Of a stretch of DNA of 60,323 nt, positions 36,417 to 55,656 are shown one piece after another. Each line of letters opens with the position of its first letter. Position 1 is the first letter of the stretch. This DNA is from Dehalococcoidales bacterium (GTDB lineage: Bacteria; Chloroflexota; Dehalococcoidia; Dehalococcoidales; Fen-1064), in contig JAURWL010000256.1 in assembly GCA_030654965.1 (NCBI GenBank), positions 1 through 60,323 on the forward strand. Reading direction: 5' to 3'. The position numbers and the translations under genes are program-made. The notes beneath the pieces were generated by a model. It was not told the DNA's origin, ran no database searches, and worked only from the letters and a program-made list of their open reading frames with translations.

Positions 36417-38117
36417 ATGAGTGTTACCAGAAGAATCTATTTCTATCTAGTGACCTTCGTAGCACTGGTTGTCTTCGCTATCGGCATCGGCCAGCTTCTA
36501 GCGCTGTTATTCGATGTCACTTTGCGCGATTCCTCTTTGATTCTGATAGGCGGAGAAGCATTCAACATTCGGCAGTTCAGTCTCGGTCTGGCAATGATAG
36601 TAATTGCAGGACCTTTATGGTTTTTCTTCTGGCGGTCAATTCGGAAACGTGTCACCGGCAACCCCGAAGAAATCGGTTCGGCGATGCGCAAACTCTTTCT
36701 TAGCCTGATACTCGTCACCACAGCATTTAGCGGATTGGGTGCGGCAAGCGCATTTCTGAAATGGTTAATGGACGGAGTTCAACTTGCCTATTTCCCTTCC
36801 GGCGAACTTGCCACTTTGATTGTCAGCGCGGGCATCTGGTTTTATCACTGGCGTGTCTCTGGGAAAGAGGGATACCCTTCACCAGCGGCGAAAACGCTCC
36901 GGCGATGGTACGTTTATATCCTGGCAGGCTTTGGACTGGTGTGGCTGAGCGTAGGTATTGTGGATTTAATCAGCGCCGCCGTTTTAACACTCCCAGTCTG
37001 GACAGACACAGTTGTGCAAGGGCAGTTCTGGAACGATACAACCCGGATGGGGATTACCTGGATATTGCTGGGTGGCGCTACCTGGTATTTTCATTGGTTC
37101 CGTATGGCGCGGGGTGATATTGAATCGGTCTTACGGCAGGTCTACTTTTACCTGCTAGCAATATCTGGCGGCGCTATTGCCGCTCTGGTTGCACTGACCA
37201 CCACCGTCTATCAGGTCCTGAAGTGGATTTTTGGCACCGCCACGGTCTCGTCCGGTCAGCATTTCCAGTTTTTAGGATGGTCGCTCCCCACCTTACTCAT
37301 CGGTATCGCAATCTGGGGTTATCACCGGCAATTAGTGCAGGAAGAGCAAGCTCATATGGAAGAGCGACGACTCTCTGCGCAACGCGTTCATCTGTACTTG
37401 ATGTCATTTCTCGGGCTGGGGACTCTGGTTACGGGCTTGATATACCTGTTTGGCATTTTGCTGGGTCTCATCATCGGCTCGGTCAGCGCTCCCGCGGCGG
37501 GAAGTCCCGGCGGGTGGAAAGATTCGCTCAGTTTATGCCTGGCTCTACTCATGGTAGGTACGCCATTGTGGCTATATTATTGGGGTAAGGTATTGAAATT
37601 ATCAGAAACAGGCGGAGTAGTAGAGTGGCGGGCGCGCTCACGGCGTATCTTCCTTTATATTATAGTAGGAGCGGCTATCGGGACTCTCGTTGCCGACCTG
37701 GTGAATATTGTCTACCAGGTACTCAATGGACTACTTCAGGGAAACTTCGGCGTACAGGTCTTGCGTGCCATCAGGTGGAGCCTGCAGACTCTTATTGTCG
37801 CCGCACCGCTTCTATGGTATCACTGGCAGATTATCAGAAGCGACCAGCGCCGCGGGGCAGAAGTAGTGGCAGTGCAAAAAACGGTAACGCTCGTCGCCAG
37901 TGACCGCACCGGAGAACTAGCTTCTAGACTCACTCAAAAACTCGGCTACAAAATACGGGTACTGTATCCCGTAAGCTCCGCAGATGCGGAAACTGCCTTA
38001 ATCTCCGATGAGGAAATGATGCAGGCTATCACCAACGTACAGAACGCGCCTAGCACTACCGTTATGCTGGTTGCTCTCGGGGGGAAGATAATCGTGCTTC
38101 CTTACCGGGAGAAATGA
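36417..38117 (+). CDS. Multi-pass membrane protein with repeated DUF5671-like units
   Basis: Repeated R(R/Q)xY(F/L)Y...W(F/Y)(Y/F)HW helical-hairpin units. Confidence 0.7.
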   Translation: MSVTRRIYFYLVTFVALVVFAIGIGQLLALLFDVTLRDSSLILIGGEAFNIRQFSLGLAMIVIAGPLWFFFWRSIRKRVTGNPEEIGSAMRKLFLSLILVTTAFSGLGAASAFLKWLMDGVQLAYFPSGELATLIVSAGIWFYHWRVSGKEGYPSPAAKTLRRWYVYILAGFGLVWLSVGIVDLISAAVLTLPVWTDTVVQGQFWNDTTRMGITWILLGGATWYFHWFRMARGDIESVLRQVYFYLLAISGGAIAALVALTTTVYQVLKWIFGTATVSSGQHFQFLGWSLPTLLIGIAIWGYHRQLVQEEQAHMEERRLSAQRVHLYLMSFLGLGTLVTGLIYLFGILLGLIIGSVSAPAAGSPGGWKDSLSLCLALLMVGTPLWLYYWGKVLKLSETGGVVEWRARSRRIFLYIIVGAAIGTLVADLVNIVYQVLNGLLQGNFGVQVLRAIRWSLQTLIVAAPLLWYHWQIIRSDQRRGAEVVAVQKTVTLVASDRTGELASRLTQKLGYKIRVLYPVSSADAETALISDEEMMQAITNVQNAPSTTVMLVALGGKIIVLPYREK

Positions 38118-41311: not shown

Positions 41312-42286
41312 ATGCCAAATATTGACATTGACCGGATTGCCGCAACCGGCAAGAAAGTCAAAGAAAACGTCGGGCTCGTAATTATCGGCAAGAGCGATGT
41401 CGTAGAACTGGCGATTATCGCCCTGCTCTGCGAAGGGCACCTGCTTATTGAGGATGTTCCCGGTATCGGCAAAACAATGCTCGCCAAATCTATCGCACGG
41501 TCGCTCGGGTGCAGTTTCCGGCGCATCCAATGCACTCCCGACCTCCTGCCTTCCGACATTACCGGCACCTATGTGTACAATCAGAAAAATTCTGATTTTG
41601 AGTTTCGTCCCGGTCCTATCATGGCGCAGATGGTGCTCGCCGACGAGATAAACCGGGCAACACCGCGCACCCAGTCCGCCCTGCTCGAAGCGATGCAGGA
41701 GCGCCAGGTCACTGCTGAAGGTGAAACAAAACTACTACCACGCCCCTTTATGCTGATGGCTACACAAAATCCCATTGAGCTTGAAGGTACTTTCCCACTA
41801 CCTGAAGCACAACTTGACCGGTTTTTACTGAAAATTAAGATAGGTTATCCCACGGCCGAGGACGACCGTCTCATTCTAGCACGATTCCGCCAAATAGACC
41901 CGCTGGAAGCGCTGAAACCTGTAGTGGATTCCGCAGAACTTCTACAATTGCAGTCGGAGACACGGAAAGTCCAGGTCACCGCTGATGTGGAGGATTATAT
42001 CATCCGTCTCGTCCAGGCTACCAGGACACACCCCGCCCTGCAGTTGGGCGCCAGCCCCCGCGCCATGCTGGCTCTCTACCATGCGTCACAAGCGTTGGCA
42101 TCTCTGAGAGGGAGAGAGTTCGTTATTCCGGATGATGTAAAGTACCTGACGCCTTTCGTATTGACTCATCGCATCATTCCCAGAATGGAAAGCCACTTGC
42201 GAGGACAGACCGCCGAACAGGCACTGGGTGAAGTGCTTGCTTCCCTAGCAGTTCCGGTTGAAGGAGATATTGGGGTAGAAAAGTGA
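41312..42286 (+). CDS. MoxR family AAA+ ATPase
   Basis: EDVPGIGKT, DLLPSD, DEINRA, ATQNPIE, LPEAQLDRF. Confidence 0.95.
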   Translation: MPNIDIDRIAATGKKVKENVGLVIIGKSDVVELAIIALLCEGHLLIEDVPGIGKTMLAKSIARSLGCSFRRIQCTPDLLPSDITGTYVYNQKNSDFEFRPGPIMAQMVLADEINRATPRTQSALLEAMQERQVTAEGETKLLPRPFMLMATQNPIELEGTFPLPEAQLDRFLLKIKIGYPTAEDDRLILARFRQIDPLEALKPVVDSAELLQLQSETRKVQVTADVEDYIIRLVQATRTHPALQLGASPRAMLALYHASQALASLRGREFVIPDDVKYLTPFVLTHRIIPRMESHLRGQTAEQALGEVLASLAVPVEGDIGVEK

Positions 42287-43518
42287 AGCACCGTAGCGGT
42301 ATCTGGCTTCTCATTGCCATAACACTCCTTTTCTTTGGATTGCTCCTGCGACAGGGACCGCTAATACTGGTGGCGGCATCACTATTACTGGTCGAAATCC
42401 TGACTCAACTGTGGGAACGGTACGGACTGACCAGTGTAGTATACCGCCGACGACTCAGCGTTTCACGGGTTTTTTGCGGTGAAGAAGTCCAGCTGGAAGT
42501 CGAAGTGGCAAATGGGAAACTTTTACCGCTCCCCTGGATTGAAATCAAGGATGAAATACCGGAGAGCATCACCCTTCTCACTGGTAAGGCTTCTCCTTCA
42601 TCCAGCCCGGGACGAATGGAGATAACACAACTTTTCCCGTTAATGTGGTACGAAAAGGTAACGCGGCGTTACCGGGCTAGTTGCCTGCAAAGAGGCTTTT
42701 ACACATTTGGACCCGCGCGTATCGTTACCGGCGACCTGTTGGGGCTTGCCGCCTCCGAAACCAATTATTTCGAAGCAGACAACCTTATCGTCTACCCGAA
42801 AATTGTGCCTCTGGAGAACCTGGGCATTCCTTCCGCCCATCTCTCAGGTGAAGTGCTCACGAAAAAACGCGTTTTTGAAGACCCCATCCTTACAATGGGC
42901 ATACGCGATTATCAAAGCGGCGATAGCCTGAAGCGAATCCACTGGAAATCAAGCGCCCGCACCGGACAACTCCAGACAAAACTGTTCGAACCTTCCACTA
43001 CTATGGATATGGGAATCTTTCTGGATGTCAGGACAACTATGCCGCCGATGTTCGGGACAATACCTCATCTGACCGAACTGGGTATCATTGCCGCCGCATC
43101 TATGTGTTACCACGCGATGCTGGAAGGTTATCGGGTCGGTCTTTATGTCAACGAATGGCGATATCAGGCTAGAGAGGCTATCAGAATTCCGCCCAGCCAG
43201 CATACCGAGCAACTGCCACACATACTGGAAAACCTTGCTAAAATCGACCCTGCACCCAATGAGTGTATGCCGATGCCGACACTTGTCCTGCGTGAAGGTA
43301 CCAGTTTACCATGGGGAAGCACCGTGGTGGTCATCAGTGCTGTCCCTACAGAAGGTCTGCTCTCCTCCTTACACAAGGTCAGAAAAGCCGGGCGGATGGT
43401 AGCACTCGTCATTGTGGGCAGTGGGGAAATGCCATCGGGAAAAGACAGTTTGAATATCTACAGGATACCCGATGATGTATCATGGCAGAACTTAAAAGGG
43501 CTTTCCTTAAAGAAATAA
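42283..43518 (+). CDS. DUF58 domain protein
   Basis: IRDYQSGDSLKRIHWKSSAR, VYPK, follows MoxR. Confidence 0.88.
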   Translation: MKHRSGIWLLIAITLLFFGLLLRQGPLILVAASLLLVEILTQLWERYGLTSVVYRRRLSVSRVFCGEEVQLEVEVANGKLLPLPWIEIKDEIPESITLLTGKASPSSSPGRMEITQLFPLMWYEKVTRRYRASCLQRGFYTFGPARIVTGDLLGLAASETNYFEADNLIVYPKIVPLENLGIPSAHLSGEVLTKKRVFEDPILTMGIRDYQSGDSLKRIHWKSSARTGQLQTKLFEPSTTMDMGIFLDVRTTMPPMFGTIPHLTELGIIAAASMCYHAMLEGYRVGLYVNEWRYQAREAIRIPPSQHTEQLPHILENLAKIDPAPNECMPMPTLVLREGTSLPWGSTVVVISAVPTEGLLSSLHKVRKAGRMVALVIVGSGEMPSGKDSLNIYRIPDDVSWQNLKGLSLKK

Positions 43519-43538
43519 TGGAAGGCAGATAGGAACGA

Positions 43539-45065
43539 GTGCATAAGACGATTCCGGATAGGATAGCATTACTTCTCCTTCCTCTATCGGCGGTGCTCAT
43601 GGAGGTTTTCTGGAGCTATCCGTGGCTTATCTGGGCTGGGAAATGGGAAACATTACACTGGCAGAAACCACCTCTGAGTATATTCACCATCCTGTCTCTG
43701 GTCGGTATTTCATTCCTCGCTACCCGATTCCTGATTAACCGGTCGTGGTCATCCCGTGCCATAAAACTGACGATTGCTGGGCTCGGACTCCTCGCAGTCT
43801 TTATTGCAATACGAATTGAATACGGAAACGGAATGGAGCTTTTCTCCACGCGCTGGTTCGTCTACATCGGACGGATTATTCTTAACAGTTTTAGTAATTT
43901 AAACAGTATCGTTTTAGCATTTCCCGCCGCCGCCTATTTCTGGTGGCGGGGTATGCTGTTAGGACGCAGACGAGAGTACAACTACATCCGCTCAAATGTT
44001 GTATTTGGTGCCGGGTCATTTGTGATACTGGGGATGGTCTGGTGGGCAACGATGGGAACTGCCACTTTCAGCAACATGGCAAACGCTATCGGACCCTATG
44101 TGGCGGCATTCTTTTTTTTCGGGTTGACGGGCACAGCTTTCAATAATCTCAACAACGTACAGAAACGAATGCCGCCGGGAGAGACCCAACCCATATCCTA
44201 CGGTCGTTGGCTCCCAGTCATACTCGGTATGGTGGCTGTTATTGTAGCAGTCGGAGGCATCATCGCCACCGCGACGTCTTTAGACGTTGCCGGATACATC
44301 AAACGCTTTTTTAGTATGTTCTCCAGGTTCTTAGAAATAGTGCTCACCTGGTTGGCGATTCCCATGGAGTATATCTTTATGCCTTTTGAATGGATAGCCC
44401 GAAATTTAATTGAGTTACTGATGCGTTGGTTCGGTGGCAAACCGATTCAACCGCAGGGTGAAGAAGGTGCTGGCGAAGAACTAACTGAGATAGTCCCCGG
44501 CATAACTCCAGAAGAATGGCTAACGGTAATCAAGTGGGCGCTTTTCATCATCGTGGTTATTGTGGTTACTGTGCTCATTGCTCGGTCAATTGAGAAAAAT
44601 CGCCGCCGCAGAATCGAAAAGACTCCAGACTTTGAAGAAACACACGAGTCGCTCTGGAGCTGGCGTATGTTCTTCGCCAGCCTGATACTATTCTTTAAGA
44701 GGTTATTCGGGCATTTCCTGCCGAAAAAGATGGCCAAGGGACCAGCGTTATCAGGGGGTATGGTAATAAACCAAACAGAACCATCAGTCACTACCTTAAA
44801 AATCCGTGAGGTCTTTAAGCACCTGTTGCGGGATGCTTCAAAAGTGGGCATTGGTCGGCTACGTTCCGAAACCCCGCTTGAATATGCGCAACGCTTTATT
44901 AATGAAATCCCTGACGCTGATGCGCCGATGCACGAACTCACCGAGCTTTATGTGCGTGTACGCTATAGCGACTATGACGCAGGTGACACCCATATAGTTC
45001 GTGTGAATGGCCTCTGGCGGCAAATCAGAGAACTACTGAAAATACGGAAAACAGAACAGGATTGA
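43539..45065 (+). CDS. Membrane protein with C-terminal DUF4129-like domain
   Basis: Many TM segments, SETPLEYA...LTELYVRVRYS. Confidence 0.75.
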   Translation: MHKTIPDRIALLLLPLSAVLMEVFWSYPWLIWAGKWETLHWQKPPLSIFTILSLVGISFLATRFLINRSWSSRAIKLTIAGLGLLAVFIAIRIEYGNGMELFSTRWFVYIGRIILNSFSNLNSIVLAFPAAAYFWWRGMLLGRRREYNYIRSNVVFGAGSFVILGMVWWATMGTATFSNMANAIGPYVAAFFFFGLTGTAFNNLNNVQKRMPPGETQPISYGRWLPVILGMVAVIVAVGGIIATATSLDVAGYIKRFFSMFSRFLEIVLTWLAIPMEYIFMPFEWIARNLIELLMRWFGGKPIQPQGEEGAGEELTEIVPGITPEEWLTVIKWALFIIVVIVVTVLIARSIEKNRRRRIEKTPDFEETHESLWSWRMFFASLILFFKRLFGHFLPKKMAKGPALSGGMVINQTEPSVTTLKIREVFKHLLRDASKVGIGRLRSETPLEYAQRFINEIPDADAPMHELTELYVRVRYSDYDAGDTHIVRVNGLWRQIRELLKIRKTEQD

Positions 45066-45247: not shown

Positions 45248-46807
45248 ATGAACGAAAATATCGTCGAAACAACTGCGGGTCAAGTTTGTGGTTACCTGGA
45301 ACGAGAAGTTTATGCATTCAAAGGCGTCCCATATGGCGCGCCGACTGGTGGCAACCAACGTTTTTTACCACCAAAACCGGTTGCACCGTGGGCGGGGATA
45401 AGATACGCGGGCGAATATGGACCCATCTGCCCGCAAACAGGGTCATTGGTTGATGAATCAAGACCTTTCTCAATCGCCCGTACGGAGGGACACACCAGAC
45501 TCCTGCCACAGAGTGAGAATTGTTTGGTACTGAATGTCTGGACGCCGGCCGTAGGCGATGGTGGAAAACGTCCGGTTCTGGTATGGCTACACGGTCGTGG
45601 TTTTACGGCGGGAGCGGGCTCAGAAACCCAGTATATCGGCGCCGCACTGGCAAAACGAGGTAATACAGTCGTGGTGACAATTAATCACAGACTCAATATA
45701 TTCGGTCATCTATATCTGGCGGATATTGCAGGTAAAGAATATGCTGCTTCGGGTATAACCGGCTCACTGGATATGATACTGGCACTGCAGTGGGTACATG
45801 ATAACATCGACGCATTTGGCGGGGATAAAAGCCGGGTGACCATTTTCGGTGAATCAGGCGGTGGCTGCAAGGTCTGCACAATGCTGGCTATGCCTGCGGC
45901 GAAAGGTTTGTTCCACCGCGCTGTTATTCAGAGCGGTTCAATGGGAACCTGGGCTGTAGAACCCAAGTCAGCCACAGCCATAGCAGAACGTCTATTGGCA
46001 GAGTTAGGTATCAAAACCAATCAGATTGATAAACTCCAGCAATTACCAGCTCAGCAATTGTTGGATGCTTTGAGTGCCATCACTTCAAGGAGGTCCAGTC
46101 TGGGTTTGGGCGCCCCGGGTGGTGTCGCCATGCAGTTAGCCCCGGTTGTAGATGGTCACTACTTGCCTCAGCATCCCTTCGACCCGGTAGCGGCGCCATC
46201 AGGAGCGGATGTGCCGTTGATAGTCGGTTGCAACCGGGATGAAAATGCCACTTTTATGGCGGCTGACCCACGGCGTCGCCGACTTGGAGAGGCAGAATTA
46301 CACGAGCGCCTGCTACCTGCACTCGGCGCGAAAACGGATGAAATAATAAATGTGTATAAAAGCACCAGACCTGACGCCACTCCCTGGGACATTTTTATCG
46401 GGATTACCAGTGAGCGGGAACGGCGCACGGTAATACAGCTTGCAGAACGGAAAGCGGCTGGTGGGCGCGCTCCGGTGTTTGTGTATTTATTCACCTATCA
46501 GTCCAATTTCCTCGGTGGTCTTTTCAAGGCAGGTCACGGTCTCGAAATCCCATTTGTGTTCGATATTACCGACGATGTGCCCTGGACCGGCGACCGACCG
46601 GACAGGTACGAGTTATCTTCGGCGATGAGTCAAGCATGGGCAGCATTCGCACGCATTGGTGACCCCAGTCACCCGGGGATTCCTAAATGGGAACCTTTTA
46701 CTGCCAATTACCGTGCGACGATGCTTTTCGACGTTCCTTCGAAGCTGGTGGTTGACCCATTCCGCAAAGAGCTGGATGCCTGGAAAGGCATACCGATTCG
46801 GAGTTAA
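45248..46807 (+). CDS. Type B carboxylesterase
   Basis: FKGVPYG, SENCLVLNVW, FGESGG nucleophile motif, NRDE, AGHGLE. Confidence 0.92.
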   Translation: MNENIVETTAGQVCGYLEREVYAFKGVPYGAPTGGNQRFLPPKPVAPWAGIRYAGEYGPICPQTGSLVDESRPFSIARTEGHTRLLPQSENCLVLNVWTPAVGDGGKRPVLVWLHGRGFTAGAGSETQYIGAALAKRGNTVVVTINHRLNIFGHLYLADIAGKEYAASGITGSLDMILALQWVHDNIDAFGGDKSRVTIFGESGGGCKVCTMLAMPAAKGLFHRAVIQSGSMGTWAVEPKSATAIAERLLAELGIKTNQIDKLQQLPAQQLLDALSAITSRRSSLGLGAPGGVAMQLAPVVDGHYLPQHPFDPVAAPSGADVPLIVGCNRDENATFMAADPRRRRLGEAELHERLLPALGAKTDEIINVYKSTRPDATPWDIFIGITSERERRTVIQLAERKAAGGRAPVFVYLFTYQSNFLGGLFKAGHGLEIPFVFDITDDVPWTGDRPDRYELSSAMSQAWAAFARIGDPSHPGIPKWEPFTANYRATMLFDVPSKLVVDPFRKELDAWKGIPIRS

Positions 46808-46883
46808 TGTTTTGCCAGTACCAGCAAAATAAACTGTAATAATTACCGGACTGAAAGAAAAAATTATATAGAGAGGATAAAGA

Positions 46884-48440
46884 ATGAAAGAGATTATTGT
46901 CGAGACTACTGCGGGGAATATTTGTGGCGTAGAAGAACGGAATGTTCTGGCATTCAAAGGCGTCCCATATGGCGCGCCGACTGGTGGCAACCAACGTTTT
47001 TTACCACCAAAACCGGTTGCACCGTGGGCAGGTGTGCGTTATGCTGGCGACTTTGGTCCAATCTGTCCGCAGACAGGGCACCTGGTTGACGAATCACGGC
47101 TTTACTCATACGTGCGTACAGAAGGGCATATCAGATTCTTACCCCAGAGTGAAAACTGCCTGGTGCTGAATGTCTGGACGCCGGCTGTGGGCGATGGCGG
47201 CAAGCGCCCGGTGTTTGTCTGGCTTCACGGTCGCGGTTTTGCCCAGGGCGCCGGTTCGGAGACCCAGTATCACGGCGCCAGGCTTGCCAAACGCGGTAAC
47301 GCAGTCGTAATTACCATCAATCACCGGTTGAATGTTTTTGGCTTCCTGCATCTGACGGATATTGCCGGTGAGGCGTTTGCCGGTTCCGGCATGGCAGGTA
47401 TGCTGGATGCCGTGCTGGCTCTTCAGTGGGTACACGATAATATCGAGGCATTTGGTGGGGATAAAAACCGCGTGACCATCTTCGGAGAATCCGGCGGCGG
47501 CGCGAAAGTCAGTACGTTGCTCGCCACACCTTCGGCAAAAGGACTATTTCACAGAGCGGCGATTCAGAGCGGCGCGGGATTGCGTGGTGTAGAACCAAAA
47601 GAAGGCTCGGATACAGCCGAGCGCCTTTTAGCCGTGCTGGGTATTAAAAAGAACGAAATCAATAAACTTCAGCAGTTACCGGCGCAAGAACTGCTTGATG
47701 CCCTAAACAAAATACCGGGGCGACCTGTTACACCCGGCAGCGGCTTACCAACAGGCGCTATTATGCGGTTTACCCCGGTGGTAGATGGTAAATATCTGCC
47801 CACTCATATGTTCGACCCCGTAGCCGCACCGCCAGGATTGGATGTTCCAGTTATCGTCGGCACCAACCGGGACGAATCGGCGACTTTCCTTGCCAATGAC
47901 CCGAAACGCCGCAGACTTTCGGAGACAGAACTGCGCCAGCGATTGATACCCTTGTGCGGCGATAGGGTAGACAGCATAATTAGTGTATACAAAAAATCAA
48001 GACCGGAAGCTACTCCATGGGACCTGTTAATCGGCATCCAGAGTGAAGGAATGAGGCGGTCAGCTGTCACTCTCGCGGAGCGTAAGGCGGCGGCTGGTGG
48101 TGCCCCGGTCTATATGTATTTAGTCACCTATCAGTCTGATTTCCTCGGCGGATTGTTCAAAGCAGGACACGGCATCGAGATAGCTTATATATTCGATGTT
48201 GCCGATGATGTGCCTTACGTTGGCAACCGCCCCGATAAAAACGAGTTTGCCGCGGCGATGAGCGAGGCATGGCTGGCTTTTGGGCGTACCGGTAATCCGA
48301 GTCATCCAAGGATCCCGAAATGGGAACCCTACGATGTAAAAAAACGTGCCACCATGCTCTTCGATGTTCCATCCCGACTGGTAAACGACCCATTCCGCGT
48401 GGAGCTTGATGCCTGGAAAGGTATGGAGATACGCCGTTAA
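46884..48440 (+). CDS. Type B carboxylesterase (tandem paralog)
   Basis: Same motifs, colinear with 45248..46807. Confidence 0.92.
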   Translation: MKEIIVETTAGNICGVEERNVLAFKGVPYGAPTGGNQRFLPPKPVAPWAGVRYAGDFGPICPQTGHLVDESRLYSYVRTEGHIRFLPQSENCLVLNVWTPAVGDGGKRPVFVWLHGRGFAQGAGSETQYHGARLAKRGNAVVITINHRLNVFGFLHLTDIAGEAFAGSGMAGMLDAVLALQWVHDNIEAFGGDKNRVTIFGESGGGAKVSTLLATPSAKGLFHRAAIQSGAGLRGVEPKEGSDTAERLLAVLGIKKNEINKLQQLPAQELLDALNKIPGRPVTPGSGLPTGAIMRFTPVVDGKYLPTHMFDPVAAPPGLDVPVIVGTNRDESATFLANDPKRRRLSETELRQRLIPLCGDRVDSIISVYKKSRPEATPWDLLIGIQSEGMRRSAVTLAERKAAAGGAPVYMYLVTYQSDFLGGLFKAGHGIEIAYIFDVADDVPYVGNRPDKNEFAAAMSEAWLAFGRTGNPSHPRIPKWEPYDVKKRATMLFDVPSRLVNDPFRVELDAWKGMEIRR

Positions 48441-50483: not shown

Positions 50484-50801
50484 AGGTCACTCCTCGTCAT
50501 TATTTCGTCAAAGACTATCGTTAATACACAAGTATAACCTAGTAGAGCGGAATTTTAAAAGAATAACTTCTCAGTGTCAAACGGCAGAAGCGTTTATTGA
50601 CGAGCATAATCAAAACAGTACAAACGTCAGTAATATCGAATGCCGCACGCTCGTAGAATATCACAGATTAATAAAAGTCATAGTGGGAAAAGTCTGAATG
50701 TCTCACGCTCTGTAAGAAATAGAGGAAGGAGATTTATCGCAGGTAGCCGCTTTATCGATGTGCACGCATCATATGGCTGATTTCAATGTAGAGTGACATA
50801 T

Positions 50802-51206
50802 TTAGTTTTTTATTGATATGCCCCTCGATTTCAACACTTCTTTAACTATGGCTCTAAGCTCCTCTGGCGCAAATGGTTTTAGCAAGAACAATCGCCCCGT
50901 TTCTTTCAAAAAACTTTGGGTTTCTCCGCCAATCACATCTCCAGTAGTGAGAATCACCCCATTTACCAGCTCAGGATGTCTATCATTAATATATTGAAAT
51001 ATTTCCTTCCCATTTATCACTGGTGTCTTAATGTCAATCAGGCAAAGGTCATAATTGTTCCTATCTAACATTTCCTCGGCTGTCCGCCCATCTATGGCAA
51101 TGCTTACCTCTAACCCCTCACCCATAAGTACCCTGACACAGAGACTGCTTATTGATGGTTCATCCTCAACTACAAGAATCCTCTTTTTATCAGCAGAGTC
51201 TGTCAT
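50802..51206 (-). CDS. Single-domain response regulator (CheY-like receiver)
   Basis: ILVVEDE, DLCLIDIKTP (phospho-Asp), TTG, FLLKPF; ATG 51206 after AGAGGA. Confidence 0.88.
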   Translation of the reverse strand: MTDSADKKRILVVEDEPSISSLCVRVLMGEGLEVSIAIDGRTAEEMLDRNNYDLCLIDIKTPVINGKEIFQYINDRHPELVNGVILTTGDVIGGETQSFLKETGRLFLLKPFAPEELRAIVKEVLKSRGISIKN

Positions 51207-51364
51207 TATATTCCTCTTCTCCAATTTCCAACGGTAGATTTCCGCGATGAATGTAGCACCTTTAACAGGTTCGAAAAATATCACTCGAAGGGCTATCAAA
51301 TGACGCGTTTCTCAATTTCCTCAAAAAGTACTCTCCCGCTCCAACTATTTCAACTCAAGTCGTA

Positions 51365-52006
51365 TTATCTCTCGACTATTTGTCCAGTCATCGCTTTCTC
51401 TACTTGTGTTCTGCTCTTCTCTGCCGCGTTATCTGCAGAACCGGAAGATGAGGCAGGTTGGACAGCGCTATTCTTGCCAAAAACAACCTCCAGTAAGAAG
51501 ATAATAAAACCCATCCCTATCAAGACATCGCCTGCGCTGTAAACGCCACCCAGATGACTCGCCGGAATGATGTCTGTCAAGAACCACAGATTTGTCTGGT
51601 CGATGGGCAACAGAACTCCGCTGCCCTCAGGTAATACCATTCCAAATTGAGATGGACCAAGGAATGTCATGTCGGCTAGCTGTCTCGCTTCCGGTGACAC
51701 CGGCATTAGTCCGCTATTCGCCGCTATTGCGATAAAGTTGAGCAGAGTTCCCAGTGTCATTATACGTAGGCTCCGAAAATTAAAATTACGAGATAGCGCC
51801 CAGAGTAAGAGCACGTAAGATAAAATCATACAAGCTCTTTTAACATCCACGAGCGATTCCCGCGCGAAAATCGCAAACGGCAACCGGTGTATGAGAGCAC
51901 TCAGCAGGATAAGCCACCAGTATCTAACTCTTACTGCTGTAATGTTCGCAATCGACTTTGCGAATACTTTCCGGCAAACGGACAGTACCTTCTTTGTTGG
52001 TTGCAT
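51365..52006 (-). CDS. DUF5317-like membrane protein
   Basis: LNFIAIAANSGLMPV, LWFLTDII and YSAGDVLI motifs; several TM segments; start position uncertain. Confidence 0.75.
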   Translation of the reverse strand: MQPTKKVLSVCRKVFAKSIANITAVRVRYWWLILLSALIHRLPFAIFARESLVDVKRACMILSYVLLLWALSRNFNFRSLRIMTLGTLLNFIAIAANSGLMPVSPEARQLADMTFLGPSQFGMVLPEGSGVLLPIDQTNLWFLTDIIPASHLGGVYSAGDVLIGMGFIIFLLEVVFGKNSAVQPASSSGSADNAAEKSRTQVEKAMTGQIVER

Positions 52007-52039
52007 TTCTACTTCTCTCTCATCAGGTAGTTGAAGAAA

Positions 52040-52093
52040 GACTGTAGCCCCGAGCATCAGACTATAGGAAAGAAATCGCTCGGGGTTTTAGTC
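52040..52093 (-). other. Intercistronic stem-loop (leaky terminator or stabiliser)
   Basis: CCCCGAGC/GCTCGGGG stem with outer GACT/AGTC pair, followed by TTTCTTC on the minus strand. Confidence 0.55.
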
Positions 52094-52106
52094 CTTCTCT
52101 GACAGG

Positions 52107-52226
52107 TTATGGGTTGAAGGCGGCCGGCGCTCCTCCGGCTACAGCTATGGCGACTGCGATAGCCACAAGTAACAAGATTTTCACCAATGGCAAATACCGA
52201 GACAGAGTAACAAATTGTTTTCGCAT
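52107..52226 (-). CDS. 39-aa signal-peptide-like small protein, putative signalling precursor (absent from the ORF track)
   Basis: MRKQFVTLSRYLPLVKILLLVAIAVAIAVAGGAPAAFNP*; purine-rich SD region TAAGGAAAGGAAAGGGG; own promoter elements upstream. Confidence 0.75.
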   Translation of the reverse strand: MRKQFVTLSRYLPLVKILLLVAIAVAIAVAGGAPAAFNP

Positions 52227-52280
52227 GTTGAAACCCCTTTCCTTTCCTTATTTAGAACATAAAAATATTCTATTGTTCTA

Positions 52281-52327
52281 ATAATAAAGGGTAGGCTCTT
52301 ACCAACCTCTTACCAAGCTCTTACCAA
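52281..52327 (-). promoter_or_regulatory. Three TTGGTAAGAG direct repeats (11-bp period) plus -10 box
   Basis: CTCTTACCAA at 52296, 52307 and 52318 on the + strand; TATTAT 9 nt downstream on the minus strand. Confidence 0.8.
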
Positions 52328-52350
52328 GCATGGATAATGATAGATTTGGA

Positions 52351-52385
52351 TAAATAAAACGGGACTCACTGAAGAGTGAGTCCCG
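52351..52385 (-). terminator. Intrinsic terminator of the large regulator gene
   Basis: CGGGACTCACT/AGTGAGTCCCG stem followed by TTTTATTTA on the minus strand. Confidence 0.85.
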
Positions 52386-52410
52386 CTGAAATACGGATTC
52401 CAGTTGTCTG

Positions 52411-55400
52411 TTAGTTCTGAATGTAGCTTGAAGTCCGACCAGCTACAATAAGCTGGTAAAGCTTCTGAATTTCGTGCGATGATTCGGACTTGCTTTCATT
52501 TGTGGCCAATTCCACATATTGCTTGTACGTGCGCAGCGCCAGCGACCTGTTTTGTTCCGCCAGGTGACAGCGTATCATGCGACAATAAGCATCCTCTGCA
52601 TAGGGGTCTATCGCAACATATTTTTCAAGCAATGTTACAGCCCGACCGTAGTTACCTTGGCTCGCATAGCAGTCAGCCAACAAAGATAAGGCTCTCAAGT
52701 ACTTGTTTTCAAGCTCACGGCGCCGTACCTCAATCCATTCGCTGTAGAGTTCGCCCAGAAATGTTCCGCCGTAGAGCTCTAAAGCCCGCTCGAGAACTGA
52801 CGCACGGTCAGTCATATGGGTGGGCATTGCTTCTGCTGCTGTTAATAAATTTTCGAATTCCGCCACATCATACCAGATACGGAGGTTCGGATTAATTTTG
52901 TAGCGTCCGTCTTCGAATGCGAATATGCCTGGGTATAACGCCCGACGTGCCCGGAAAATATTGATGTGGAAGTTACTGGTCCCTTTGGCTAAAGACAGGT
53001 CGGGCCATAGCGCCGCAATAATCTGCTCTTTCGTTTGCCCGTTATGGTGCGTGAGCAGATAGAAGAATATTTCTTTGGCTCTATTGGAGCGCCAATCGGC
53101 ATCGCTCACCCGACGGCTATTTATCATCACTTGAGTATGTTTTAAAGCCCTGGCTTCAATACCTGGTTTCGTTGGTACGTCCAAACCGTTTGCAACACCG
53201 GCAATAAGTCCTGCCGATTTCCTTTCCTTGATAGTCTCAATCTTTTCCAGAATCCTGAGGAAACGAGCACCCCCTATCCCTTTTTCGGCTCCGTACTGAA
53301 TAAGCGGAATTGCGTTCCGTCCCTCTGTTGCCAGAAAGTCTTCATAACCCAGTTCATCTGCCAGGCTGGAAGCTTTTTCGAGCCACTCCACGGCACGGAC
53401 ATATTTACGTGATAGAAACGATGCTTGCGCAATATGGAAATAAGCCTTCGCCAGGGCATCTCTGTCGCCCATGGTCTTCAGGCGTCGGCTGGCATCATTG
53501 AGAACCGCTTCTGCTTTCTCGAATTGACCTCGTTCATACTCGATTATCCCGAGCGGAATGGTAAAAAGCGCAGCTTCATACGGCTGTTCCTGCTCTTCCG
53601 CCTGGTGTTGAGCTTCTTTCAGCAATATCTCTGCTTTCTCACTCTCGCCTTGAAATCGATGGGTCTCGCCTATACCGGCTGTGGCATACGCTACCAAAGA
53701 AGCCTCCATTATCTGTCTGGCTAGTTCCAAACCCTCCTGATATGCCGTCATAGCCTCTTGATACAGACCCAAGTCCCGAAGCAAGTCAGCCATGGATATA
53801 AGAATCACAGCTTCAATGCGGCGGTATCCGGTTTCTCTGGCTTTTTCTAAACCGGAACGAAAGGTATCCAGCGCCAGGTCGTACTGCCCCATGCGCTGGT
53901 AAATGAGACCGATGTTGTTTAGAGCCGAGGCTAGTACCCCGAAGTTTTTAGTTTTCAGCCAGCCGGTTCTTGCTTTTTCGAAGTGCATTTTTGCTTTAGC
54001 AAGTTGTCCCAGTCGCATGTAAGTGATACCAAGCGAGTTGTGCACCAGCGCAATATCATTGACATTAAGAACTGAAGAATAGTATCTCAGAGCACGTTGA
54101 AGGTGTCTCAAGGCTGAGGGAAAACGTCCCTGTTCGGCATGAATGTCACCCAGCCTTCTATGCGCATCACCAAGCAAGTCTGCGGGACATTGATGCTGTT
54201 CCAGCAGGCGAATCGCTGTACCGATGTCGGCGCGGGCTTCCCGGAAGTAGCCATTCAGGCGGAAGGCGGCGCTACGCCAGCTCAATGCCTTTGCCTTTAT
54301 CAGCCAGTCTTTCTCATCAGGAAACCCACCGATTAGCTTTGTCAAAATATGTACAGCTTCATCAACCCGACCGATGTAGGTCAGTGTCTGAGCATCAAGT
54401 ATCACTATTTCTGGGTCGGATGCTCGCAATGCATCGGGCAACATATCAAGCCATTTAGAGATAGTTGTCCATTTACCTGACTTAAAGAAATCCGCCCCAA
54501 CTATCTTTATGACCCTCACAGCCTCATCGTATTTTCTTGCGGTGGCGTAGTGCTTTACAGCCTCATTCCACCGTTGATTATGTTCATAGAGTGAGCCAGC
54601 CATAGCGTGTAGATTAATAAATTGGGCAGGGTCGTCTTCGAGCAGTTTTGTTTGTAGAAAATCTTTGAAAATCTGGTGATAGCGGTACCATTTCTTTCGC
54701 TCATCGATACATTGCATGAAAAGGTTCTGCTGGTCAAGAAGTCGGAGTATTTTACGGGAGTTGATGGACGGCAGCAGTTGGTCGCATATCTCCGGGCTCA
54801 GGTCGTCTAGCGTGCTGGATGCCAAGAGAAAACTCTGTATCGCAGGTGGTTGTTTATCATAGACTTCTGACGTCAGGTAGCGAGAGACGTCTTCCTGAGA
54901 TATGGCTGGCATTTGTACAGCCAACTTACCTTCACGCAGGCTATGTACACCAGACAGCACGCCGATTATCCAGCCTCCGGTGTGTTGAGTCAATTTATCC
55001 GCTTCCTGAATAGACAGGTCAATACCGTAGTGCGCAGCTATAAGGTCCTTCGTCTCACCAGATGTAAGAGAAAGCTGTGACACCGTTATAATCGCGGCAG
55101 GATTCTGTAACACCGTTTTAGAAATTACTGGCAGTTCCACCTGAGTACGACTCGAAATGATAACATGGCAATTGTCCGGAGTTCGTTCTAAAAAGAGGTT
55201 TAGTAAAAGCCTTGCTGGTTCACTATTTTGAAGAAAATGATAGTCATCCAGAACGAGCACAAAGAAATCCGCAATGTCAGAACTGATTTCAGCCGCCAAC
55301 GTATTGAGTAATTGCGTGGCGTCCTTTGTCAGGTCAGTCGTGCTAAGCAAGCGTGAGTTCGTCTGATATCCGAAATTTGGAAAGCGTGAGCAAATTGAAG

Positions 55401-55656
55401 CCAGAATTCCCTCTAACAGCACCCTGGGGTCCTCATCTGTGGCATCAATAGTGTACCAACAAATAGGCGCACCAAGGTCTTGCGCGAAATTTGTCAGCAA
55501 TGTTGTCTTGCCATAGCCAGTGGGTGCCGATAGCACCTGAATGCGTGTTTGAACATTGTCGTGCAGGATGTCAATCAACCGTTCACGACGGATAATTTTA
55601 TTCCCTCTTCGAGGGACGAGCAGTTTGGGGTTGAATATAGCAGTACCGATACTCAT
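52411..55656 (-). CDS. MalT-like STAND NTPase + TPR array + C-terminal wHTH/BTAD (SARP-type) transcriptional activator
   Basis: APTGYGKTT, LVLDDYH, TGGWIIG, YRYHQIFKDFL; TPRs such as ALNNIGLIYQRMGQYDLAL; EQIIAALWP; ALELYGGTFL...EW...DPYAE. Confidence 0.88.
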   Translation of the reverse strand: MSIGTAIFNPKLLVPRRGNKIIRRERLIDILHDNVQTRIQVLSAPTGYGKTTLLTNFAQDLGAPICWYTIDATDEDPRVLLEGILASICSRFPNFGYQTNSRLLSTTDLTKDATQLLNTLAAEISSDIADFFVLVLDDYHFLQNSEPARLLLNLFLERTPDNCHVIISSRTQVELPVISKTVLQNPAAIITVSQLSLTSGETKDLIAAHYGIDLSIQEADKLTQHTGGWIIGVLSGVHSLREGKLAVQMPAISQEDVSRYLTSEVYDKQPPAIQSFLLASSTLDDLSPEICDQLLPSINSRKILRLLDQQNLFMQCIDERKKWYRYHQIFKDFLQTKLLEDDPAQFINLHAMAGSLYEHNQRWNEAVKHYATARKYDEAVRVIKIVGADFFKSGKWTTISKWLDMLPDALRASDPEIVILDAQTLTYIGRVDEAVHILTKLIGGFPDEKDWLIKAKALSWRSAAFRLNGYFREARADIGTAIRLLEQHQCPADLLGDAHRRLGDIHAEQGRFPSALRHLQRALRYYSSVLNVNDIALVHNSLGITYMRLGQLAKAKMHFEKARTGWLKTKNFGVLASALNNIGLIYQRMGQYDLALDTFRSGLEKARETGYRRIEAVILISMADLLRDLGLYQEAMTAYQEGLELARQIMEASLVAYATAGIGETHRFQGESEKAEILLKEAQHQAEEQEQPYEAALFTIPLGIIEYERGQFEKAEAVLNDASRRLKTMGDRDALAKAYFHIAQASFLSRKYVRAVEWLEKASSLADELGYEDFLATEGRNAIPLIQYGAEKGIGGARFLRILEKIETIKERKSAGLIAGVANGLDVPTKPGIEARALKHTQVMINSRRVSDADWRSNRAKEIFFYLLTHHNGQTKEQIIAALWPDLSLAKGTSNFHINIFRARRALYPGIFAFEDGRYKINPNLRIWYDVAEFENLLTAAEAMPTHMTDRASVLERALELYGGTFLGELYSEWIEVRRRELENKYLRALSLLADCYASQGNYGRAVTLLEKYVAIDPYAEDAYCRMIRCHLAEQNRSLALRTYKQYVELATNESKSESSHEIQKLYQLIVAGRTSSYIQN

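Follow-up and report, generated by a model that had tools for sequence, protein, structure and literature searches.

A conserved micro-ORF between an AfsR-like regulator and a DUF5317 membrane protein in Chloroflexota, and its possible role in peptide signalling

Introduction

The RRNPP signalling systems of Firmicutes, among them Rap–Phr, NprR–NprX, PlcR–PapR and Rgg–SHP, have a small pro-peptide gene beside the gene of the receptor. To our knowledge no peptide signalling has been described in Chloroflexota, a phylum that is abundant in sediments, groundwater and sludge. Here we analyse a 39-codon open reading frame (ORF), hereafter the micro-ORF, in a 60,323-nucleotide stretch of DNA from a Dehalococcoidales bacterium (contig JAURWL010000256.1; this whole stretch is the window). 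The micro-ORF lies between the gene for a large AfsR-like regulator and the gene for a membrane protein of the Pfam family DUF5317, and we refer to the three genes as the cassette. A first-pass annotation of the window had pointed to this ORF as one that is almost all signal peptide. We propose that the cassette may be an undescribed peptide-signalling system. Literature searches (supplements not covered) found no paper naming 'DUF5317' and, on Chloroflexi, quorum sensing and TPR, nothing on the cassette.

How does the locus compare with RRNPP signalling? The cassette also has a small pro-peptide-like gene beside the gene of a putative receptor: a TPR-bearing cytoplasmic regulator adjoins a very small ORF whose front is signal-like and whose C-terminal end is short. 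This small gene is probably driven by the regulator, and in one clade the operon includes an oligopeptide-type uptake system. The differences are that there is almost no pro-region here, that the alanine–proline junction is conserved, that a DUF5317 partner is always present and that the phylum is Chloroflexota. The regulator was rejected as a receptor of the RRNPP fold, as Pfam shows only AAA/NTPase, TPR and BTAD families in it and its C-terminus matches the SARP domain of AfsR.

A second comparison is with AfsR and AfsS. AfsS is a soluble small protein. In Streptomyces coelicolor, as described in passages of PMC10936776, AfsR, a large SARP containing NOD and TPR parts, activates the adjacent small gene (AfsS), and it uses two 11-bp direct repeats that overlap the −35 region, the 3′ one lying 8 bp from the −10 element. 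The cassette likewise has a large SARP with NTPase and TPR parts beside a small gene, preceded by 11-nt repeats that end 8 nt before a −10-like hexamer. Here, however, the SARP domain is C-terminal, the target is a membrane micro-protein together with DUF5317, and the window has three repeats.

The micro-ORF and DUF5317 can be compared with AgrD and AgrB of staphylococci, where a short membrane-associated precursor is encoded beside the small polytopic membrane protein that processes it. This likeness is one of layout, with no sequence or fold relation seen, and the cassette does not parallel it in gene order, in sensing by a two-component kinase or in thiolactone chemistry. Small single-pass proteins that bind larger membrane proteins, such as MgrB, AcrZ and KdpF, are of similar size, have a single helix and are encoded next to their partner; they show no homology to the micro-protein and lack a conserved cleavage-like junction, tandem copies and a dedicated STAND activator.

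Results and Discussion

The micro-ORF is a conserved gene

The micro-ORF was described by the first-pass annotation as having a basic N-terminal end, a hydrophobic core, two glycines and a short tail, preceded by a strong Shine–Dalgarno stretch. This description held: the peptide has a basic N-terminal end, a long uncharged stretch, two glycines and seven further residues, and the purine-rich stretch 7 nt 5′ of its ATG is conserved in related loci. Three of 60 relatives carry DUF5317. In two of these (G001 and G009, of the same family as the window), an in-frame ORF of 39 codons lies between a homologous regulator and DUF5317; in the third (G058, of the same order and a different family), DUF5317 is present without a micro-ORF or regulator at the locus.

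Substitutions in the micro-ORF follow the pattern of a translated gene under constraint. The ratio of non-synonymous to synonymous rates (dN/dS) was 0.10–0.21 in the seven closest pairs, drawn from the window, three metagenome loci and G001. One metagenome contig differs from the window at 16 bases of the micro-ORF, 12 of them at third codon positions (binomial 8e-4), and these differences change four residues and introduce no indels and no stops. We also searched the whole 1.85-Mb genome with the family pattern, which fitted 1 of 61,271 candidate starts, namely the micro-ORF itself; as the pattern was derived from the family, this count is a control of specificity and not a discovery.

The unique fit of the pattern, the relatives of the same length in G001 and G009, the dN/dS values and the third-position bias all argue that the micro-ORF is more than chance. 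An ORF that arose by chance in an intergenic spacer could be this short, and the exact 39-residue peptide is indeed absent from a collection of 15 billion proteins. The comparative data (in-frame relatives, dN/dS, conservation of the promoter, uniqueness in the genome and substitutions at third positions) already refute this explanation, whose probability we regard as negligible. The comparisons identify the 39-codon ORF as a real, conserved gene under purifying selection. Relatives of its peptide in public protein records are nameless or called 'hypothetical protein'; no Pfam model matched any of 24 family peptides at E<0.01, and no NCBIfam model matched any of eight at E≤1.

The three genes stay together across Chloroflexota

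We then looked at the cassette beyond the closest relatives. A class-wide search of 400 genomes yielded 27 further genomes with a relative of DUF5317. A micro-ORF directly upstream of DUF5317, and on its strand, is present in 24 of the 33 class loci; six of the other nine hold a canonical type of DUF5317 without a micro-ORF, and three are cut by contig ends. When one genome per species was scanned, we obtained 80 genome loci from Dehalococcoidia and Anaerolineae, including those of the cultivated Ornatilinea apprima and Bellilinea caldifistulae. Conservation in frame at orthologous loci, on which the first-pass annotation had let its proposal depend, is seen here: in-frame relatives of the micro-ORF occupy the same place in 77 of the 80, the exceptions being L068, L117 and L099, the last with only 376 nt of upstream DNA. 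The class and genome sets overlap in part (some loci come from the same species genomes) and, as the genomes are related, the counts do not represent independent events.

Upstream, 17 of 20 class loci and 71 of the 80 genome loci have a homologue of the regulator, usually aligning over its full length at 24–56% identity; one homologue is divergently oriented. Of the nine genome loci in which it was missed, eight have <2 kb of upstream DNA. In the window's genome (86% complete), the regulator and DUF5317 are each present in a single copy. Tandem micro-ORFs also occur, with four copies in Ornatilinea apprima and two in L083. Near canonical DUF5317 genes we found no convincing micro-ORF in five class loci (5-kb flanks) or in most of 40 distant metagenome loci. 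By gene order in these genomes, the activator, the micro-protein and DUF5317 stay together across Chloroflexota. A different order was noted in one metagenome locus (L175 2128–2223), where an alanine–proline micro-ORF follows the DUF5317 match and does not precede it.

The regulator is an AfsR-like SARP and the micro-ORF promoter has a SARP layout

Pfam assigned BTAD to residues 930–1070 of the regulator (E 8.6e-19), AAA_16/AAA_22 and NPHP3_N to residues 19–170, and TPR families. Its last 242 residues match the SARP domain of AfsR (8hvr_I, E 2.8e-8) over about 205 residues, and both parts that define a SARP, the OmpR-type DNA-binding part and BTAD, are present. Judged by this C-terminal match, the regulator is an AfsR-like large SARP with a permuted domain order, the SARP domain standing at the C-terminus.

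In SARP target promoters the direct repeats are spaced by 11 or 22 bp, and 8 bp separate the 3′ repeat from the −10 element (PMC10936776). Upstream of the micro-ORF we observed the same spacing of repeats and the same 8-nt gap (Table 1). Two 11-nt units, followed after a gap of 8 nt by the −10-like hexamer and then the ribosome-binding stretch, recur in one register in all 10 loci of the clade; the window carries a third unit beyond the two that the clade shares. Across all clades, at least three phased 11-nt copies were present in 15 of 81 upstream regions compared to 3 of 1,620 shuffles, and the repeated word is specific to each clade. From its sequence the promoter of the micro-ORF operon has the SARP layout, and the 11-nt repeats are probably the binding site of the regulator's SARP domain. 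In a separate observation, one metagenome contig (run X7) is short of exactly one 11-nt unit, at window position 52307, so that close relatives differ in whether they carry two or three operator repeats.

Between the micro-ORF and DUF5317 the transcript would form a hairpin. A hairpin after the micro-ORF stop with z ≤ −2.4 was found in 8 of 10 clade loci, with stem sequences that differ between loci. Intercistronic hairpins raise the level of the upstream cistron, and this one may raise the level of the micro-ORF relative to DUF5317. A palindrome with 15-nt arms lies at 52252–52281, between the −10-like hexamer and the ribosome-binding site; it recurs in L136 and is not found in more distant clade loci, and it could be an operator or a leader hairpin. 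An Rfam scan of 50500–52600 returned three matches only, all far below the gathering scores.

Table 1. Positions of the cassette features in the window and of accessory genes in related loci
Feature	Source	Positions	Strand	Description
Micro-ORF	Window	52107–52226	minus	ATG, 39 codons plus stop; predicted single-pass micro-protein, invariant Ala 33, Pro 34, five-residue tail
Shine–Dalgarno stretch	Window	52234–52247 (about)	minus	Purine-rich, 7 nt before ATG; conserved purine-rich block in related loci
Three head-to-tail 11-nt direct repeats	Window	52295–52327	minus	Spacing 11 and 11, identity 91–100%
−10-like hexamer	Window	52281–52286	minus	8 nt after the last repeat unit (ends 52295); 5 of 6 columns invariant across the clade
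Intercistronic hairpin	Window	52035–52098	minus	Between micro-ORF and DUF5317; 21-nt arms, minimum free energy −28.8, z −4.0, no U-tract
DUF5317 membrane protein	Window	51365–52057	minus	PF17248, E 3.4e-25; likely true start codon 18, at 52006
Regulator, 1,081 aa	Window	52411–55656	minus	N-terminal STAND/AAA NTPase, long TPR array, C-terminal SARP domain (OmpR-type DNA-binding part plus BTAD)
Terminator-like hairpin after the regulator gene	Window	52358–52387	minus	13-pair stem, 4-nt loop, T-rich tail; inverted repeat
Receiver-only response regulator	Window	50802–51299	minus	Response_reg, E 1.9e-17; probable start internal ATG near 51206
Second micro-ORF type	Related loci	L062 3637–3732; L066 4160–4234; L109 4132–4206; L115 3000–3074; L142 ending at 137
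Second micro-ORF type	Related locus	L113 4052–4126 and 4214–4288		Two tandem copies
SBP_bac_5 after DUF5317	Related loci	L076 5740–7443; L091 5684–7450; L109 5620–7320; L114 5828–7576; L115 4446–6128		One Dehalococcoidia clade

The peptides share an alanine–proline junction and differ in their tails

When 24 members were aligned with MAFFT, only the start and one alanine proved invariant. We took this alanine as position −1 and used it to anchor 103 distinct peptides, a few of which belong to a second micro-ORF type (see below); the alanine is thus fixed by construction in the larger tally and was found independently in 24/24 peptides of the alignment. The next residue is proline in 90 of the 103, glycine in six, alanine in four and aspartate in three. 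Small residues precede the alanine, with G, A or V at −2 in 97 peptides, A, G or S at −3 in 96 and A or G at −4 in 89. The uncharged span ends at the alanine and measures exactly 17 residues in 66 peptides and 20 in 21, with K or R before it in 101. The tail after the alanine has 3–19 residues (5–6 in 44 peptides, 9–10 in 34, 17–18 in 10) and contains an aromatic residue in 82. The first-pass annotation had suggested a search of homologous loci for a conserved junction followed by variable tails, and this is what they hold: a small-Gly-Ala-Pro junction with tails of variable length. In the window's own clade, the five residues around the junction never change.

The family has the layout of a Sec signal peptide, with a basic n-region, a hydrophobic h-region and small residues at −3 and −1. 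Which enzyme could cut it? Signal peptidase I is blocked at a bond that has proline directly after it, and an ordinary cut by this enzyme at the Ala–Pro bond was rejected for the proline in 90 of the 103 peptides, leaving a cut one or two residues upstream as a possibility. A cut at the invariant alanine would need a neighbouring bond or a dedicated enzyme because of the proline. The annotation had also remarked on a lipobox-like stretch without its cysteine, and the window peptide does have the shape of a signal peptide and no cysteine. A bacterial lipoprotein signal, which has an invariant cysteine, was rejected for the whole family, as the residue after the alanine is P, G, A or D in 103/103. 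A double-glycine leader was rejected as well; no peptidase-C39 ATP-binding cassette (ABC) exporter is among the families listed downstream (70 first ORFs, with 25 of 29 families, and 61 second ORFs).

If the junction is cut, which part would be the signal? Enterococcal sex pheromones derive from lipoprotein signal peptides, and a fragment of the hydrophobic segment, released after the cut, could be the signal here in place of the tail. The ORF is almost all signal peptide, with a lipobox-like stretch before the junction, and the last DUF5317 motif aligns locally, at no significant score, with the second aspartate motif of LspA. A discarded tail would need neither conservation within clades nor an aromatic residue, and the tails have both; moreover, no site-2-protease or exporter is among the families listed for 131 downstream ORFs. 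We regard a signal from the membrane part as very improbable.

Some Dehalococcoidia have a second type of signal-like micro-ORF, of 24–34 codons, between the regulator and the alanine–proline micro-ORF (Table 1). In L008, L011 and L012 its place is taken by an ORF of 96–97 residues that bears a signal and contains cysteine.

The micro-protein is predicted to bind DUF5317

The DUF5317 protein scored 89.2 bits against a gathering cut-off of 25 and belongs to the Pfam family. Its true start is probably codon 18, because most homologues begin at the residue aligned to M18 and the Atlas protein starts at residue 18; the search of the protein Atlas returned DUF5317 clusters only. Seven residues are invariant in an alignment of 56 members (G103, N107, M118, P119, S174, G176 and D177), and eight more are at least 90% conserved, including N114, G115, G116 and D162. 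The AlphaFold2 (AF2) model (mean local confidence, pLDDT, of 87) has four transmembrane helices and a beta-rich loop (residues 114–174), which by the positive-inside rule would face outwards.

A model of the peptide with DUF5317 received a complex score of 0.64 (0.64, 0.64 and 0.56 in the individual runs), compared to 0.01 for the best control. This mark was reached by 58 of 80 solved complexes and by 2 of 110 mismatched pairs, a calibration that is rough as custom alignments were used. The runs agreed in ≥93% of contacts, with a partner pLDDT of ≥68. In the model, peptide residues 19–37 touch all four helices of DUF5317, and the interface (51 residues) holds six of the seven invariant DUF5317 residues (hypergeometric 5e-4) as well as D162. 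By helical register, D177 would adjoin the small residues just before the alanine–proline junction. The model supports binding of the micro-protein to DUF5317.

A precursor or a subunit of DUF5317?

What would the micro-protein do at DUF5317? We favour, at somewhat under an even chance, a role as a precursor that DUF5317 cuts to free a signal. The micro-ORF would be the first cistron of an operon, and the adjacent AfsR-like activator would switch on its SARP-type promoter. The peptide would insert with its basic N-terminal end on the cytoplasmic side, span the membrane once and dock in the middle of the four-helix bundle of DUF5317. This would place the junction (small-small-alanine-proline) at the outward cluster of invariant Asn, Ser and Asp. 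DUF5317 would most likely be a dedicated membrane peptidase that cuts at or next to the junction, and the short C-terminal tail (five to seven residues here) would be freed outside the cell as a signal. Feedback of this signal on the activator would go through the TPR array, the natural peptide sensor. Cleavage, release and sensing are inferences. We favour the precursor for its cleavage-like junction and the invariant polar residues that DUF5317 has there, and for the tandem copies, the hairpin that uncouples the two cistrons, the TPR array as a sensor and, in one clade, the uptake genes. Cleavage near the junction with release of a 7–8-mer was also what the first-pass annotation had proposed, and we would place the cut there too.

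Several observations weigh against a cleaved precursor. The regulator is cytoplasmic and the tail is predicted to end up outside, so sensing would need re-import, yet no more than 5 of 70 loci, which all belong to one clade, have an importer next to the cassette. The tails are not hypervariable: those of close relatives differ at 0–3 of 5 positions and the leaders at 0–10 of 29. Tail and leader rates in close pairs are mostly similar (one pair has changes at 0/29 leader and 2/5 tail positions), and with these mixed rates we do not claim a pherotype-like diversification of tails. DUF5317 gave no Foldseek match in the PDB at E≤0.001 and no hit in a PDB profile search. LspA (signal peptidase II, PF01252) is also a small membrane protein with two conserved outward-facing aspartates, and the micro-protein resembles a substrate of it in its lipobox-like run of small residues; however, a comparison with the LspA of the same genome by hhalign gave a probability of 0.2%, the Foldseek matches do not include LspA, and the peptide lacks the cysteine at the junction. 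DUF5317 was therefore rejected as an LspA or peptidase A8 protein. In a local alignment that is not significant, the last DUF5317 motif pairs with the second aspartate motif of LspA, a resemblance that we take as a lead only. In 3 of 5 loci, canonical DUF5317 genes that lack the regulator stand beside MASE9-HD-GYP genes, a hint of intramembrane signalling. For MASE9, the defining paper proposes that ligands bind within the membrane; it does not mention DUF5317 (10.1101/2021.11.05.467447). Finally, the modelled position of the helix, central in the bundle, would be as suitable for a permanent subunit as for a substrate.

Such a subunit is the main alternative. The micro-protein would stay uncleaved as a permanent one-helix subunit or regulator of DUF5317, in the manner of small membrane proteins that complete or tune larger ones. 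The pair would be a sensor or effector in the membrane, made under the control of the activator. Most of the data that fit the precursor can also be explained by such an uncleaved subunit: the central helix that touches all four helices of DUF5317, the hydrophobic span of fixed length, a tail that is moderately conserved within the clade, a DUF5317 that resembles no known peptidase, and canonical DUF5317 genes beside a membrane-sensing HD-GYP enzyme. Four tandem micro-ORFs to one DUF5317 gene and an uncoupling hairpin fit a product that is consumed better than one needed 1:1. Packing of a helix would require neither invariant Asp, Ser and Asn at the contact nor a −3/−1 cleavage-like motif, and the oligopeptide uptake genes in the operon of one clade also speak for the precursor. 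We consider the subunit a serious possibility, with a probability of a little over a third.

A wider version of the precursor proposal can be formulated. The cassette would be a phylum-wide system of peptide communication whose parts are related to no known system. DUF5317 would be a new two-aspartate membrane peptidase that cuts a precursor consisting of a signal peptide only at Ala–Pro, and an NLR-like STAND-SARP activator would sense the released peptide of a few residues and switch on the operon, with a link to the turnover of cyclic di-GMP in many species. We find this extended proposal attractive and, taken as a whole, rather unlikely. With a peptide-signalling cassette, a function could be assigned to DUF5317, which Pfam lists as a family of unknown function and which occurs in several phyla. 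The micro-proteins, often overlooked by gene callers, would become a new family, and an AfsR-like bacterial transcription factor of the NLR type would gain a natural ligand or output. Ornatilinea apprima and Bellilinea caldifistulae, as cultivated carriers, make the idea directly testable.

Genes downstream of the cassette

The gene directly after DUF5317 was assigned in 70 loci to PF14407 'Frankia_peptide' (24), an HD-GYP-type enzyme (14) or an oligopeptide-type binding protein (5), among others. The second gene, in 61 loci, was a receiver in 12, HD-GYP in eight, an ABC permease in three and a histidine kinase in three. In the window a receiver-only response regulator follows. The oligopeptide-type binding proteins (SBP_bac_5, Table 1) are followed by permeases in three loci of their clade, and the window's own genome has six SBP_bac_5 genes.

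These neighbours bear on a further explanation, in which the micro-protein is a membrane-active toxin or bacteriocin-like peptide, DUF5317 provides immunity to it or exports it, and the STAND regulator induces them when the cell is under stress or attacked by phage. Small membrane toxins are similar to the micro-protein in size and hydrophobicity, STAND NTPases often act in defence, and the tandem gene copies would fit. The downstream genes, however, are signalling enzymes. PADLOC reported no family for the peptide or DUF5317 and matched the regulator with a generic TPR model only, no mobile-element context was seen in the window, and the cassette is present in single copy and widely kept within one phylum. 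We regard a toxin as very improbable.

PF14407 'Frankia_peptide', a family annotated as a ribosomally made peptide, follows DUF5317 for example in L074 (5556–5840) and L111 (5501–5785) and is absent from the window; a literature search on the Pfam prototype name of this family (supplements not covered) found no paper. In L021, L027 and L032, MASE9-HD-GYP phosphodiesterase genes are directly followed by canonical DUF5317 genes that have neither a regulator nor a micro-ORF.

Elsewhere the window holds housekeeping genes unrelated to the cassette. Among its remaining features are a trio of a MoxR AAA ATPase, DUF58 and DUF4129, followed by two tandem carboxylesterase genes (41312–45065 and 45248–48440), and a 566-residue protein with four DUF5671 repeats (36417–38117).
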